IMG/VR virus record: IMGVR_UViG_3300029719_000311 | Coordinates: 1-31,209 of that record | DNA from: a virus | Lineage: Duplodnaviria > Heunggongvirae > Uroviricota > Caudoviricetes | Direction: 5' to 3' (one strand) | DNA: 31,209 bases | Shown here: piece after piece, positions 5,435 to 27,528 of the stretch | Numbering within the stretch: position 1 is the stretch's first letter | Layout of the letters: every line of letters begins with the position of its first letter | Position numbers and translations under genes: made by a program | Notes under the pieces: generated by a model | The model's database searches: none | What the model was told of the DNA's origin: nothing | The model's input: only the letters and a program-made list of their open reading frames with translations

Positions 5435-6109
5435 TTAGGCTTTGATTTTGTATCTTCTTGGTTTTCCTGAGAAAATCACTGTACCAATTATAGAGCAATT
5501 ACCGTTGATCTTAATGTAAGGCTCAGGCCAGTTTGGGTTTAACGCTTTGAGATAACGCTGTGTCCCATCTTCTATCAACCTTTTGAAGGTGGTTTCGCCT
5601 GTATCGTGCATCAATGCAATAACGTCGTCACCGTGGCAGGCAGGTACTTCAGGATCGACAAAAATCATGTCTCCCGGGCGGTACTCATCAATCATTGAAT
5701 CACCTATCACCCGCAAGATATAAGTCATTTCCCCACAGGGTACAGGGCAGGGATACGTTTCTGCTGTGCTCAAATCAACCTCAGAATATCCAACTTCTTT
5801 CCATGCTCCGGCCTGTACCCATGATATGACAGGGACTAATGTGATTTGTTTATTAGTGATTGAAACATCAGGTTTTTTTGTGATGTTCGTTGTCTGGTGT
5901 TCTTGATCGAGCCATCCGACAGGCAGGTCGAAACATTTTTCGATGTGTCGTGCCATGCTGTCACCGATATTTTTAGTAGCACCATCTCCCATAAACCTGC
6001 TGGTCTGGGTTGGCTCGCGATCAATCATAGTGGCAAAGGAAGAATTCCCGCCAACACCATCTCTCAGTTTTCTGGCGTTAGACCGCCGGATGTCATGGAT
6101 TGTTTTCAT
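5435..6109 (-). CDS. Phage repressor, cI/C2-like (N-terminal HTH, C-terminal S24 LexA-type peptidase domain)
   Basis: C-terminal ...VIGDSMIDEYRPGDMIFVDPE... (S24 GDSM serine motif) plus a downstream Lys; divergent from cro-like gene with palindromic operators between them. Confidence 0.85.
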   Translation of the reverse strand: MKTIHDIRRSNARKLRDGVGGNSSFATMIDREPTQTSRFMGDGATKNIGDSMARHIEKCFDLPVGWLDQEHQTTNITKKPDVSITNKQITLVPVISWVQAGAWKEVGYSEVDLSTAETYPCPVPCGEMTYILRVIGDSMIDEYRPGDMIFVDPEVPACHGDDVIALMHDTGETTFKRLIEDGTQRYLKALNPNWPEPYIKINGNCSIIGTVIFSGKPRRYKIKA

Positions 6110-6123
6110 AACGAAATTAAAAC

Positions 6124-6194
6124 CCTTGTACCGTTAAGGTACAAGTATCTTGAAGGTTCATTTCAATCATGTAATATGTACACCGGAGGTACAT
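6124..6194. promoter_or_regulatory. OR-like operator region between repressor and cro-like gene
   Basis: 21-bp palindrome CTTGTACC-GTTAA-GGTACAAG (6124..6144) and second dyad ATGTAC-N8-GTACAT (6175..6194) overlapping the cro RBS; related GGTACATT sites downstream of cI at 5364..5395. Confidence 0.45.
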
Positions 6195-6199
6195 ATTGT

Positions 6200-6400
6200 A
6201 TGAAAGCGTATTGGGACTCTTTAACCAAAGAACAGCAGGGCGAGTTGGCCGGAAAAGTTGGCTCAACACCTGGCTACTTACGGCTGGTTTTCAATGGCTA
6301 TAAAAAAGCCAGTTTTGTGCTGGCTAAAAAACTTGAGCAATGCACGTCAGGTGCAATTACGAAATCTGACTTAAGACCGGATATCTATCCGAAAGATTAG
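6200..6400 (+). CDS. Cro-like HTH regulator (66 aa)
   Basis: ATG preceded by GGAGG; MKAYWDSLTKEQQGELAGKVGSTPGYLRLVFNG... HTH-like; divergent from repressor. Confidence 0.7.
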   Translation: MKAYWDSLTKEQQGELAGKVGSTPGYLRLVFNGYKKASFVLAKKLEQCTSGAITKSDLRPDIYPKD

Positions 6401-6431
6401 CAGAACACTTTCAATTTTTAACCACAGAACG

Positions 6432-6995
6432 ATGAGGCTAACCGTGGGTAAGCATCACTGGAAAATAGAAAAACAGCCTGAGTGGTACGTGAAAGCTGTC
6501 AGAAAAACTATCGCGGCGTTGCCGGGTGGTTACGCTGAAGCGGCTGACTGGCTCGATGTAACAGAAAACGCTTTATTCAACCGCCTTCGTGCAGATGGCG
6601 ATCAGATTTTCCCGCTGGGATGGGCAATGGTTTTACAGCGTGCTGGTGGCACTCACTTCATTGCTGATGCTGTGGCGCAGTCTGCAAATGGCGTCTTTGT
6701 GTCTCTTCCTGACGTCGAGGATGTGGACAACGCCGATATCAACCAACGCCTGCTGGAAGTCATTGAACAGATCGGCAGTTATTCAAAACAGATTCGTTCA
6801 GCAATTGAAGACGGTGTAGTGGAACCGCATGAGAAGACAGCAATTAACGATGAGCTGTACCTCTCAATTTCGAAGCTGCAGGAGCATGCAGCACTGGTCT
6901 ACAAAATCTTTTGCGTTTCAGAAAGTAGTGACGCCCGCGAGTGTGCAGCTCCGGGCGCCGTGGCGTGTCGTGACTGTGGAGAAACTAACGCATGA
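6432..6995 (+). CDS. Putative phage regulatory protein (CII/YdaT-like position), 187 aa
   Basis: ORF immediately downstream of cro-like gene; assignment by position only. Confidence 0.4.
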
Positions 6996-7330
6996 ACAGT
7001 TTAACAACACACTACCGTCGCTCGCAACTGATTGCGCTTCCTATACCGGGTGGAAAAGCGAAGGTGGAGTATTGCTATGCAGTAAATGTACCAGGTGACA
7101 GGGAAATTGTAACCCACAGCTTTGCAGAGTGGGCTGTGGGTGATTTCAACCGGCAGAAGGAGACAGTCCTTTGCGACAAGTTAACCGCTGGTTCAAAGAT
7201 CACTACGGAGTGCCCGTCAGAGTCATTCGTTGGGAGCCGGAAACACAACGGGTTATCTACCTCCGTGAAGGCTATGAGCATGAGTGCTTCAGCCCGCTCG
7301 AACAGTTTCGTTGTAAATTCAGGGAAATAG
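6992..7330 (+). CDS. Hypothetical protein, possibly frameshifted (112 aa as called)
   Basis: ATG overlaps upstream stop (ATGA) with GGAGA RBS; N-terminal half protein-like, C-terminal half low-complexity; an alternative frame 7171..7350 reads as a compact protein (see findings). Confidence 0.3.
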
Positions 7331-7339
7331 AGGTCGGTC

Positions 7340-8281
7340 ATGAGCACTAAATTAACCGGCTATGTATGGGATGGTTGCGCTGCGTCAGGCATGAAATTAT
7401 CCAGCGTGGCAATTATGGCCCGCCTGGCTGATTTCAGTAATGACGAAGGTGTGTGCTGGCCATCAATTGAAACCATTGCCCGTCAGATTGGCGCGGGGAT
7501 GAGTACCGTCAGAACGGCTATCGCACGGCTGGAAGCAGAAGGCTGGTTAACGCGTAAGGCGCGTCGCCAGGGTAACCGCAATGCGTCGAATGTTTATCAG
7601 CTTAACGTTGCGAAGCTTCAGGCAGCGGCATTTTCTCAACTGTCAGATTCTGACCCGTCAAAATCTGACGCATCAAAATCTGACCCGTCAAAATTTGATG
7701 CGTCGAAATCTGGCAAAAAAGCGGGTTTTCACCCGTCAGAATCTGGCGGGGATCCGTCAGTAAAATCAAAACATGATCCGTCAGATAAAAAAACTTCTCG
7801 TCCGGACGCTTCGCAACCGGACACGCAGACGGCTGAACAGGAGTTTTTAACTCGCCATCCTGATGCGGTTGTATTCAGCCCTAAAAAGCGCCAGTGGGGA
7901 ACGCAGGATGATTTGACCTGCGCACAGTGGCTCTGGAAAAAAATCATCGCCCTGTACGAGCAGGCCGCCGAATGTGACGGCGAGGTGGTTCGTCCCAAAG
8001 AACCGAACTGGACAGCCTGGGCAAACGAAATTCGCCTGATGTGTGTGCAGGATGGTCGTACTCATAAACAAATCTGCGAGATGTACAGCCGCGTCAGTCG
8101 CGATCCGTTCTGGTGCCGTAACGTGCTCAGCCCGTCGAAGCTGCGGGAAAAATGGGATGAGCTTTCCCTGCGCTTATCGCCGTCCGTCAGCACGTACACC
8201 GAAAAACGCGAAGACCCGTACTTCAAAGCCAGTTACGACAACGTGGACTACAGCCAGATCCCGGCAGGATTCAGGGGGTGA
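7340..8281 (+). CDS. Replication initiation protein (lambda O-like role) with origin iterons inside the gene
   Basis: N-terminal winged-helix-like region; central DPSKSDASKSDPSKFDASKS repeats encoded by tandem 15-bp DNA repeats; position after cro/cII-like genes. Confidence 0.7.
   Translation: MSTKLTGYVWDGCAASGMKLSSVAIMARLADFSNDEGVCWPSIETIARQIGAGMSTVRTAIARLEAEGWLTRKARRQGNRNASNVYQLNVAKLQAAAFSQLSDSDPSKSDASKSDPSKFDASKSGKKAGFHPSESGGDPSVKSKHDPSDKKTSRPDASQPDTQTAEQEFLTRHPDAVVFSPKKRQWGTQDDLTCAQWLWKKIIALYEQAAECDGEVVRPKEPNWTAWANEIRLMCVQDGRTHKQICEMYSRVSRDPFWCRNVLSPSKLREKWDELSLRLSPSVSTYTEKREDPYFKASYDNVDYSQIPAGFRG
7640..7793. repeat. Candidate replication origin iterons (5 tandem 15-bp repeats plus 3 spaced copies) with adjacent A-rich tract
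   Basis: Repeats of CCGTCA(A/G)AATCTGA at 15-bp period 7640..7713, further copies at 7731, 7752 and 7777; within the replication initiator gene. Confidence 0.55.
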
Positions 8282-8772
8282 GCATGAGTCTTTTGAATGA
8301 CGTTCAGAAATTCATTGAAGCCCATCCGGGCTGTACTTCCGGAGATATTGCGGATGCTTTTGCCGGTTACTCACGGCAGCGCGTTCTGCAGTCAGCAAGC
8401 AAGTTACGTCAGAGTGGGCGTGTGGCTCACCGTTGTGAAGGAGATACACGCAGACATTTCCCGCGCCTGACTGAGAGAGCGCAGGAACCGGAACCACAAC
8501 CAGTTCGTGAAACCAGACCTGTGCGCAATTTCTATGTCGGCACTAACGATCCCCGTGTGATTTTGTGCCTGACCCGCCAGGCGGAAGAACTGGAGTCCAG
8601 GGGCTTATACCGTCGTGCTGCAACCGTGTGGATGGCGGCATTCCGTGAAAGCCACTCCCAGCCAGAACGAAACAATTTTCTGGCGCGTCGTGAGCGGTGC
8701 TTACGGAAAAGCAGCAAGCGCGCTGCATCGGGTGAAGAGTGGTATCTGTCAGGGAATTACGTGGGGGCTTAA
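8278..8772 (+). CDS. Hypothetical regulator (winged-helix N-terminus; PerC-like C-terminal region), 164 aa
   Basis: ATGA overlap with upstream gene; C-terminal ...EELESRGLYRRAATVWMAAF... resembles PerC-type prophage regulators from memory; low certainty. Confidence 0.4.
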   Translation: MSMSLLNDVQKFIEAHPGCTSGDIADAFAGYSRQRVLQSASKLRQSGRVAHRCEGDTRRHFPRLTERAQEPEPQPVRETRPVRNFYVGTNDPRVILCLTRQAEELESRGLYRRAATVWMAAFRESHSQPERNNFLARRERCLRKSSKRAASGEEWYLSGNYVGA

Positions 8773-9425
8773 TGAGTAATAAATATTGCCAGGCGCTGGT
8801 GGAACTGCGGAACAAACCAGCCCATGAACTGAAGGAAGTGGGCGATCAGTGGCGCACGCCGGACAACATTTTCTGGGGAATTAACACCCTGTTTGGCCCG
8901 TTTGTTCTGGATCTGTTCACTGACGGTGATAACGCCAAATGTGCCGCGTATTACACGGCGGAAGACAACGCGCTGGCGCATTACTGGTCAGAACGTCTTG
9001 CGGAGCTTAAAGGTGCTGCCTTTGGTAATCCCCCGTACAGCCGCGCCAGTCAGCATGAGGGGCAATACATCACCGGCATGCGTTACATCATGAAACATGC
9101 CAGTGCCATGCGTGATAAGGGCGGGCGCTATGTTTTCCTGATCAAAGCTGCCACCAGCGAAGTGTGGTGGCCGGAAGATGCAGATCATATTGCTTTTATT
9201 CGCGGGCGTATTGGTTTTGAACTGCCTGTCTGGTTTATCCCGAAAGACGAGAAGCAGGTACCGACAGGAGCTTTTTTCGCTGGTGCTATTGCTGTTTTTG
9301 ACAAGACCTGGAAGGGACCGGCAATCAGCTACATCGGGCGCGATGAACTTGAGGCATGTGGTGAGGCGTTTCTGGCGCAGGTTCGCCAGCAGGCGGAAAA
9401 ACTGGTCAGGGAGATGGCGGCATGA
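8772..9425 (+). CDS. Phage DNA N6-adenine methyltransferase (Dam-like)
   Basis: Catalytic motif NPPY in ...AAFGNPPYS...; start at ATG overlapping upstream stop (TAATG), giving MSNKYCQALVELRNK... Confidence 0.8.
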   Translation: MSNKYCQALVELRNKPAHELKEVGDQWRTPDNIFWGINTLFGPFVLDLFTDGDNAKCAAYYTAEDNALAHYWSERLAELKGAAFGNPPYSRASQHEGQYITGMRYIMKHASAMRDKGGRYVFLIKAATSEVWWPEDADHIAFIRGRIGFELPVWFIPKDEKQVPTGAFFAGAIAVFDKTWKGPAISYIGRDELEACGEAFLAQVRQQAEKLVREMAA

Positions 9426-9748
9426 CGACGTTAACTCAATGCCAGCAGCAGGTGCTGGATATGCTGATTTCTTATCAGAAAGAACGTGGCTTCCCGCCAA
9501 CCAATCAGGAGGTGGCAACCATGCTGGGATACCGTTCGGTGAATGCAGCGGTGGAGCATCTTCGCGCACTGGAGAAAAAAGGCGTCATCACGATAAAGCG
9601 TGGCGTGGCCCGGGGGATAACGCTTCATACCGCGGTGAAGGACGACGACAGCGAGGCGGTCGGGATTATCCGCGCACTGCTTGCCGGTGAGGAAAACGCA
9701 AGGCTGCGTGCAACCCACTGGTTACATGAGAGGGACCTGAAAGTATGA
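9422..9748 (+). CDS. LexA N-terminal DNA-binding-domain-like protein lacking the peptidase domain (108 aa)
   Basis: LTQCQQQVLDMLISYQKERGFPPTNQEVATMLGYRSVNAAVEHLRALEKKGVITIKRGVARGITL closely parallels the LexA N-terminal winged HTH; no S24 Ser/Lys region. Confidence 0.7.
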   Translation: MTTLTQCQQQVLDMLISYQKERGFPPTNQEVATMLGYRSVNAAVEHLRALEKKGVITIKRGVARGITLHTAVKDDDSEAVGIIRALLAGEENARLRATHWLHERDLKV

Positions 9749-27255: not shown

Positions 27256-27528
27256 ATGGCACTTAAATGTCCGGAATGCGGTACAGTTGCACACGCCAGA
27301 ACAGCAGCCTATGAAGCTCCGTCAGTTAAACGCTCGTGGTATCAGTGCCAGAATCTGGAATGTTCCTGCACATTTACGGCACTGGAGAGTGTGGATAAGA
27401 TAATCATGAAACCCCGGCGCAATGAACAGGAACCAGACAAATCACAACCCCCGGTAAAACAACAGCAAACGCTCAATCGCTATGGCTCCGCGTCAAAACT
27501 GTCAAGCCGTCAGCAGATTCCTGTCTGA
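27256..27528 (+). CDS. Ogr/Delta-family zinc-finger late transcription activator
   Basis: MALKCPECGTVAHARTAAYEAPSVKRSWYQCQNLECSCTFTALESV matches the Ogr pattern C-P-x-C-x4-HART...Y-x-C-Q-N-x-x-C-S-x-T-F; start at ATG after AGGAG rather than track GTG at 27247. Confidence 0.85.
   Translation: MALKCPECGTVAHARTAAYEAPSVKRSWYQCQNLECSCTFTALESVDKIIMKPRRNEQEPDKSQPPVKQQQTLNRYGSASKLSSRQQIPV

Follow-up and report, generated by a model that had tools for sequence, protein, structure and literature searches.

How does a lambdoid prophage of the SfII/SfIV kind start its replication, and where? We addressed this question in a viral genome fragment (Caudoviricetes; IMG/VR record IMGVR_UViG_3300029719_000311, positions 1 to 31,209), the whole of which, 31,209 nucleotides (nt) of one strand, is called the window here. 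Its gene at 7340-8281 (+ strand) encodes a 313-amino-acid (aa) replication initiator of the lambda O type and the HTH_36 class, as judged from the open reading frame (ORF), Pfam and PHROG hits, matches to phage genes, and homology to lambda O and phi80 gp15. An original prediction, made from the bare sequence, had placed a likely prophage origin at repeats within this gene. A lambda-type origin (ori) inside an O gene is a well-known, ordinary arrangement; here it concerns an initiator class whose origin was unmarked. Our analysis makes it likely that 7640-7796 is the lambda-type replication origin of an SfII/SfIV-like lambdoid prophage, situated in the predicted disordered linker of its own initiator gene.

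The five tandem 15-bp repeats of the original prediction were readily confirmed. Read directly in the sequence, they occupy 7640-7714 on the + strand, with units starting at 7640 (CTGTCAGATTCTGAC), 7655 (CCGTCAAAATCTGAC), 7670 (GCATCAAAATCTGAC), 7685 (CCGTCAAAATTTGAT), and 7700 (GCGTCGAAATCTGGC). The units are contiguous and head-to-tail, have the core TCA(A/G)AATCTGA in common, and each closes with a variable 4-nt spacer. Tandem Repeats Finder returned the same array (7649-7712, period 15, 4.3 copies, score 86), and this was the sole array in the window with a score above 50. The program also reported 88% matches at period 30; we rejected a 30-bp repeat as the general unit because the spacer alternation is absent in other genera. 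Three further spaced copies had been proposed as well. One of them, at 7733-7747 (+ strand; CCGTCAGAATCTGGC), is a full sixth unit, which adjoins the AT-rich stretch described below, whereas those at 7751 and 7775 proved to be half-units consisting of GATCCGTCAG and A-rich sequence. Units 5 and 6 are separated by an 18-nt spacer at 7715-7732 (+ strand; an A6 tract followed by GCGGGTTTTCAC), which sets their start-to-start distance at 33 nt. The six full units correspond to gene nt 301-408, and the repeats including the half-units to about gene nt 301-450.

The motif clusters in this gene. Allowing up to three mismatches, the 14-mer CCGTCAAAATCTGA has seven + strand matches, every one within 7640-7746, and its total of 10 matches in the window compares with 3.2 +/- 2.0 expected, a number that none of 100 shuffles reached. 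For the shorter motif CCGTCAR the window has 21 occurrences where 6.0 would be expected, eight of them inside 7340-8281. A search for clustered 11-mers found 7 copies in the gene, and two or three in each of 31 further 942-nt chunks elsewhere in the window. Every unit has a GTCA-N5-TGAC dyad, giving it internal symmetry, with a self-complementarity of 12/13 in unit 1, 10/13 in units 2, 4, and 6, 8/13 in unit 3, and 6/13 in unit 5. The five tandem units are in frame with the ORF, as had been stated, and encode SDSDP-SKSDA-SKSDP-SKFDA-SKSGK; the DxSKS peptide repeat noted at the outset is, however, a by-product of the 15-bp period and is not shared by the family. On the minus strand, the spacer between units 5 and 6 can also be read as a weak terminator-like hairpin (7735-7722; CGGGTGAAAACCCG then CTTTTTTGCC). 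Its pattern of A-tract, GGG, TTTT, and CACCC is partly kept in other genera, and the hairpin at 7722-7735 may equally be a bend or spacer element.

The selection acting on the units was assessed with 53 units, taken from ten genes in Escherichia/Shigella, Pantoea, Citrobacter, Providencia, and other enterobacteria. The core TCA-(A/G)AA-TCT-GA is conserved, and the two codons before it vary freely (D/V/H/E/Q and P/A/T/Q/V). Of the two serine codons of the units, one is TCA 45 times out of 47 and the other TCT 34 times out of 37, compared with 22% and 11% of the serine codons elsewhere in the same genes. At the fifth codon the middle base varies nonsynonymously (TCT, TTT, TGT, TAT, CCT) and the third base stays T. 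For the N-terminal domain of the same gene pairs, just 29-50% of the codons for identical residues match. Judged by these alignments, the conservation pattern of the units is motif-shaped, not codon-shaped.

Next to unit 6 lies the presumed unwinding element, an AT-rich stretch at 7757-7796 (+ strand). This 40-nt segment has 27.5% GC, the minimum of the gene; it begins 10 nt after unit 6 and includes an A7 run at 7787-7793. The two GATCCGTCAG half-units, identified by cross-genus alignment, span 7751-7789 (+ strand). They start 24 nt apart, at 7751 (GATCCGTCAGTAAAA) and at 7775 (GATCCGTCAGATAAA, continuing into the A7 run), have in common only GATCCGTCAG and A-rich sequence, and each carries a Dam site (GATC at 7751-7754 and 7775-7778). 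Even where the tandem iterons of relatives differ in sequence, the half-units are the block of linker DNA best kept across genera. Their aspartate codon is GAT, which preserves GATC, in 16/16 and 15/16 cases; serine-to-leucine changes in this region retain T-A; and D138, P139, S140, V141, and P147 are invariant in the homolog alignment. The window as a whole shows no excess of GATC (94 sites vs 116 expected); what makes the pair in the AT-rich stretch notable is solely its cross-genus conservation. Linkers of six relatives (L007-L011 and L021) have three GATC sites inside about 45 bp, and the phage has its own Dam methylase gene (8739-9425) two genes downstream of the initiator. Control of this origin by methylation or SeqA is conceivable.

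The comparison with lambda ori in gene O, drawn in the original prediction, held up well. The initiator's C-terminal domain matches lambda O (BLASTP E 1e-25, aligned over aa 167-277) and phi80 gp15 (35% identity, E 2e-25), and the N-terminal domains of both proteins are unrelated to that of the initiator. The GenBank records annotate four ori iterons at gene nt 349-433 in lambda and four gp15-binding sites at gene nt 365-441 in phi80, a place equivalent to that of the repeats described here. In an alignment with lambda and phi80 the last iteron is followed by an A/T-rich stretch, a ..TCTTCGTC.. block, and the start of the C-terminal domain, in the same order in all; published accounts of lambdoid origins give a like description. 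As a positive control, our array finder returned exactly the four annotated iterons of lambda. The same procedure put the lowest-GC window of lambda 3 nt after iteron 4, at 20% GC; the stretch is shorter and less extreme here. We take the parallel with lambda to be homology, not only analogy, on the strength of these alignments.

Like lambda ori, the element has iterons in mid-gene between the N- and C-terminal domains, internal dyads, the lowest-GC stretch directly downstream, and a gene position after cII (PMC7466680). It differs from lambda, which has 4 iterons of 18 bp at 20-24 bp spacing, in its 15-bp head-to-tail repeats (6 full and 2 half-units), in the HTH_36 class of its N-terminal domain, and in a shorter AT-rich stretch with two GATC sites. 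Moreover, no P gene lies downstream here, and the protein tail is DnaT-like, whereas that of lambda is NTDW. Gene 15 of phi80 has a homologous C-terminal domain and likewise places AT-rich DNA and a conserved ..TCTTCGTCC.. block after its iterons, but its N-terminal domain is of another class, its iteron (CCCGAAAACGG) has a 21-bp period, and the phage has a P-type partner, gp14 (Pfam PF06992, 1e-49). Iteron plasmid origins (pPS10, R6K, P1) likewise combine a winged-helix Rep protein with direct repeats, AT-rich DNA next to them, and GATC sites within or close to the region that unwinds. These lie outside the rep gene and usually have DnaA boxes; the present array, in contrast, is inside the initiator gene with no DnaA boxes nearby.

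To see how general this anatomy is, we collected 80 genomic loci encoding proteins with this C-terminal domain and scanned 77 of the genes for clustered repeats. All N-domain classes have an array of 3-10 copies, located 190-340 nt upstream of a conserved WAN(E/D)(V/I)R motif. The repeat motif is class-specific, with periods of 12, 15, 21, 22, or 23 bp: 15 bp in the class of this window (TCAAAATCTGA) and in Edwardsiella relatives (TTGACCCCCC), 21/24 bp in L024 and L030 (GGAGATTCACC), 21 bp in the phi80 class (CCGAAAACGG), 22 bp in L023, L037, and L038 (TCGCGGAAC), 23 bp in L020, L022, L025, and L028 (GGTCAAAATG), and 12-bp blocks in N-type 2 (L043 and others; CCGCGCATAAC). Three divides neither 22 nor 23, so that at these periods each copy is read in another frame than the one before it, which argues for selection at the level of the DNA instead of a peptide repeat. 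In 40 of the 77 genes the gene's lowest-GC 40-nt window begins between -25 and +40 nt from the array end, against about 7% by chance; the genes behind this count are not independent, and the effect is seen in several classes. A last array interval of 33 nt was found in all seven related genes whose search took in the junction (L004, L005, L006, L012, L014, L016, and L019). One initiator class also has a second kind of repeat between its 23-bp iterons and the C-terminal domain, within the AT-rich part: three TACAGAGAATA units at 12-bp spacing in phage mEp460_4F5 (L084, 1169-1207), and likewise in L045, L065, L071, and L073. By analogy, these could be unwinding-element repeats like the 13-mers of oriC.

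Two natural domain swaps separate the repeats from the C-terminal domain. Phage mEp460_4F5 matches gene nt 446-942 (from about 7785 of the window onward) at 97% DNA identity and has an unrelated N-terminal domain; its repeats are four GGGTCAAAATGAC at 23, 23, and 24 bp in addition to the three TACAGAGAATA units. Conversely, Citrobacter phage phiNP matches gene nt 2-479 at 83% DNA identity; it shares the N-terminal domain and the 15-bp CCGTCAAAATCTGA units seen here, and its C-terminal domain is unrelated. In both swaps it is the N-terminal DNA-binding domain, not the C-terminal one, that the repeats travel with, as would be expected of the cognate iterons of an initiator. These two matches and the protein alignment place the mosaic junction at 7785-7818 (+ strand), just past the AT-rich stretch, between an origin-specificity module and a C-terminal module. 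From these comparisons, N-terminal domain, iterons, and AT-rich stretch move together as a single recombination module.

The domain layout of the protein agrees with this division. The N-terminal winged-helix DNA-binding domain (aa 1-100; 7340-7639, + strand), the presumed iteron reader, has Pfam matches at aa 21-89 (HTH_36, 4e-11; weaker GntR, MarR, and DnaD_N) and co-varies with the repeat motif. The C-terminal helical domain common to lambda O and phi80 gp15 was delimited by BLASTP and AlphaFold (aa 167-278; 7838-8173, + strand). In the AlphaFold2 model the mean predicted local distance difference test score (pLDDT) is 57.9, with about 30 for the linker at aa 104-165 and 80-89 for aa 189-278. 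The linker is thus predicted to be disordered, and an origin placed there could accept whatever peptide the DNA dictates. A PDB sequence search with the whole protein gave weak MarR-type matches on the N-terminal domain (E about 0.008) and none for the C-terminal domain. Foldseek of the model against the PDB gave winged-helix regulators only and no match with E <0.8, none of them informative on the C-terminal fold, and a search of NCBIfam found no meaningful family for the initiator.

Repeat number was also compared among homologs, as suggested with the original prediction. The tandem block ranges from about one to ten units, counted from the linker strings, as a regular-expression count of peptide units over-counts through overlapping matches. 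Five tandem units, as here, make up the dominant E. coli form (>5,000 member sequences), six the dominant Salmonella form (867 member sequences), and seven the dominant Klebsiella form (1,615 member sequences); most or all of the tandem units are, in contrast, gone from some rare forms. Of the short variants (P0015, P0016, P0017, P0029, P0031, P0064, and P0069), most retain unit 6 and the GATC half-units; unit 6 is kept in P0017, P0029, and P0069 (ending ..SESGG) and not in P0015. From their sequences, the short variants look like deletions by recombination between repeat units. In the Shiga toxin (Stx) phages 933W and P27 the origin has six iterons, a number that differs between closely related phages; the two distal ones are weakly bound and yet matter for replication, and the iterons adjacent to the AT-rich stretch are essential (PMC7466680). 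By analogy, the copy-number pattern here, with variable tandem units and a conserved proximal unit, fits auxiliary distal iterons and an essential proximal part. Unlike the present phage, 933W and P27 have lambda-type N-terminal domains in O, lambda-type iterons, and an encoded P.

How the origin would be used can be sketched by homology with lambda. After induction, the early rightward operon (cI | cro-cII-orf-O) would express the initiator, whose N-terminal winged-helix domain would bind the dyad units TCA(A/G)AATCTGA, probably as dimers, five of them in tandem and one 33 bp on. The nucleoprotein complex would then destabilize the adjacent AT-rich stretch at 7757-7796 with its two GATC sites, and the C-terminal domain and tail would bring in the host DnaB helicase. 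Because no P-type loader is encoded, the helicase would probably be loaded through the DnaT-like tail and host DnaC.

Several observations weigh against assigning the origin to 7640-7796. The 15-bp period is shorter than the usual spacing of 20-24 bp, so that winged-helix dimers could hardly occupy all neighboring units simultaneously. The A-rich tract that had been predicted to follow the repeats is there, with the A7 run and the lowest GC of the gene, but it is short and not extreme for the window, in which 10.6% of the 40-nt windows are equally low or lower in GC. No DnaA boxes lie near the array, the sole TTWTNCACA of the window being at 27390; lambda ori likewise works without DnaA boxes. 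In the codon argument there is some circularity, as similarity to the core was the criterion by which units were chosen, and slippage within a genome also homogenizes units; contiguous arrays with no unit skipped give the same codon picture. Four homologs (P0015, P0017, P0031, and P0069; rare, with 1-7 member sequences each) lack most or all tandem units; either a high copy number is no strict requirement, or the prophages concerned are defective. Finally, the support for binding and origin activity in this initiator class is comparative.

We weighed these points together with other explanations of the repeats. They might simply be a slippage-prone, low-complexity DxSKS peptide linker with no role as DNA, the origin being elsewhere. 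The units are indeed in frame, rich in serine, aspartate, and lysine, and part of a linker predicted to be disordered, and their number varies as freely as slippage in a neutral linker would allow. However, related genes have at the same spot arrays whose 22- and 23-bp periods rule out an encoded peptide repeat, the motif follows the N-terminal domain and not the neighbors of the linker, and its conservation has the shape of a motif. In addition, annotated iterons are found there in lambda and phi80, and the 31-kb window has no other repeat array, and we consider a pure peptide linker quite unlikely. It is also unlikely, in our view, that the repeats bind the initiator or another phage protein purely for control, through autoregulation, titration or handcuffing, or inhibition of replication and exclusion, and are not the start site. 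Extra iterons act in copy control in iteron plasmids. The weakly bound distal iterons of the Stx phages nevertheless matter (PMC7466680), and here the distal tandem units vary in number, with the proximal unit and the GATC half-units conserved. Against a purely regulatory role, the order of array, lowest-GC stretch, and C-terminal domain is that of lambda ori, and the window has no second array that resembles an origin; the proposal is really a refinement, in that some units may be auxiliary.

A third explanation, that the element is a dead relic in a defective prophage and the array nonfunctional in this genome, seems very improbable. Among 5,426 complete E. coli genomes, 1,576 (about 29%) contain at least 80% of the initiator gene, and K-12 W3110 has a truncated copy, so many copies reside in cryptic prophages. 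The gene in the window is intact, though, and its DNA identity is 99.6% with the 'replication protein'/'primosomal protein' gene of the characterized Shigella phage SfIV and 98.6% with its SfII counterpart. SfII and SfIV were both isolated as phages, and the 942-nt gene aligns gaplessly in both. Several E. coli phages have 'DNA replication protein O' genes that are close to it as well, all gapless over 942 nt. The neighboring repressor, cII, Dam, and RusA genes are intact ORFs, and a silent copy here would not undo the identification of the element. Homology and several independent comparative tests support the original placement of a likely prophage origin in this gene, and 7640-7796 is the reading that we retain.

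We also considered how a helicase might be loaded at this origin. No P-type loader, DnaC-type loader, or helicase is encoded after the initiator, and Pfam gave no Phage_lambda_P/PF06992 hit. The initiator itself ends in SQIPAGFRG (8252-8278, + strand), a candidate recruitment motif for helicase loading that is identical in 8 of 9 residues to the end of E. coli DnaT, SQIPPGFRG (dnaT reference, L082 2979-3518). In four relatives (L020, L022, L025, and L028) the tail, ..VNHISEPDTEIPPGFRG, matches 13 of the last 17 residues of DnaT. Among 107 DnaT orthologs the IP.GFRG end is 99-100% conserved, and the residues before it vary. The BLASTP likeness of the initiator to DnaT is confined to the last 9 residues; Pfam gave no hit to the three-helix single-stranded DNA-binding domain of DnaT (PF17948), and the PDB sequence search returned no DnaT chain. 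Because the likeness stops at the tail, the label 'primosomal protein I' in some phage records is not supported as family membership.

The tail type was then compared with the downstream gene in a census of gene ends and next ORFs at L001-L080 and L081 (phi80). A Phage_lambda_P gene is next downstream in 42 of 77 relatives. Tails of the lambda/phi80 type (W..E.WE..L or NTDW) account for 40 of the 42 loci with Phage_lambda_P next, whereas a P gene follows at 0 of the 19 loci with an (I/V/L)PxGF(R/K)G-like tail. Two of these 19 (L024 and L030) have a DnaC homolog as the next gene, 51% identical to E. coli DnaC, so that the order mirrors the host dnaT-dnaC operon. A third tail class (..QAAEQAA..) also occurs without P.

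Both DnaT and DopC, a domesticated O-like HTH_36 protein with the DnaT C-terminal motif (PMC5509034), end in ..IP(P/A)GFRG, and DopC in addition has an HTH_36 N-terminal domain like that of the initiator; DopC loci, unlike the locus described here, are without iterons (PMC5509034). The mechanism by which DnaT recruits DnaB/DnaC is stated to be unknown (PMC13377028), and neither the cryo-electron microscopy paper on the preprimosome nor the DnaT84-153 paper assigns a partner to DnaT residues 154-179. A text search of the literature for the PGFRG tail motif returned collagen papers only. 'O-only' modules have been counted in 34 of 314 Enterobacterales lambdoid phages and were said there to be unstudied and not understood (PMC12315714). 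The present module is of this kind, with a single O homolog and no helicase or loader gene; that survey does not describe an origin or a tail (PMC12315714), whereas the present analysis describes both an origin anatomy and a candidate motif for recruitment. We tentatively propose, at somewhat less than an even chance, that O-only initiators, the present one among them, borrow the host loader: their last 9-17 residues would copy the DnaT tail (..SEPDxxIPPGFRG) as a linear motif recruiting DnaC-DnaB or another primosome partner.

The surroundings of the gene resemble those of a lambdoid early right operon. A minus-strand S24 repressor gene (cI; Peptidase_S24) is followed by a cro-sized ORF, CII (Phage_CP76), a 112-aa ORF, and the initiator, and the + strand order of cro-like gene, cII, orf, and O after such a repressor is typical of that operon. 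A scan of 6000-9000 for sigma-70 promoters found no consensus site. PHROG 391, 'replication initiation O-like', matches the initiator end to end (1.6e-135). Downstream are a PerC-like gene, the next after the initiator (8278-8772, + strand; Pfam PerC 7.9e-9; PHROG 'transcriptional activator'), the Dam methylase gene, a gene for a protein with a LexA DNA-binding domain, and RusA. The 112-aa ORF (6992-7330) belongs to PHROG 1170, is annotated as DUF4222 in E. coli genomes, and has no Pfam hit; it is retained in mEp460_4F5 together with a different initiator N-terminal domain. The LexA-type protein (9422-9748; 108 aa) consists of the DNA-binding domain alone (Pfam LexA_DNA_bind 2.9e-19), with no protease domain, and could occupy SOS boxes without being cleavable. 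The initiator copy of K-12 W3110 (NZ_CP084899.2 2478953-2479661) is truncated at the 5' end, lacks its first 233 nt, and adjoins yfdN (PerC family); its iterons are kept and its N-terminal DNA-binding domain is gone.

The SfIV and SfII records contain no origin annotation, having coding features only under the match, and literature searches found no described origin for SfII, SfIV, or SfV; the SfIV paper names a 'replication module' and mentions no origin. Our analysis marks the probable origin of a prophage family found in about 29% of complete E. coli genomes as well as in the Shigella serotype-converting phages SfII and SfIV; annotation, the interpretation of coverage profiles after induction, and the construction of replicons can make use of it. 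For the initiator family as a whole, it provides a rule by which a class-specific repeat array with a low-GC stretch directly upstream of the conserved C-terminal domain marks the origin. The tail is the part that could open a new direction, as it bears both on how O-only phages load DnaB and on how DnaT recruits DnaB/DnaC. If the proposal is true, the same DnaT tail would be the handle by which the restart primosome recruits DnaB/DnaC, and the host dnaT-dnaC operon would mirror a phage module of an O-like gene followed by DnaC.

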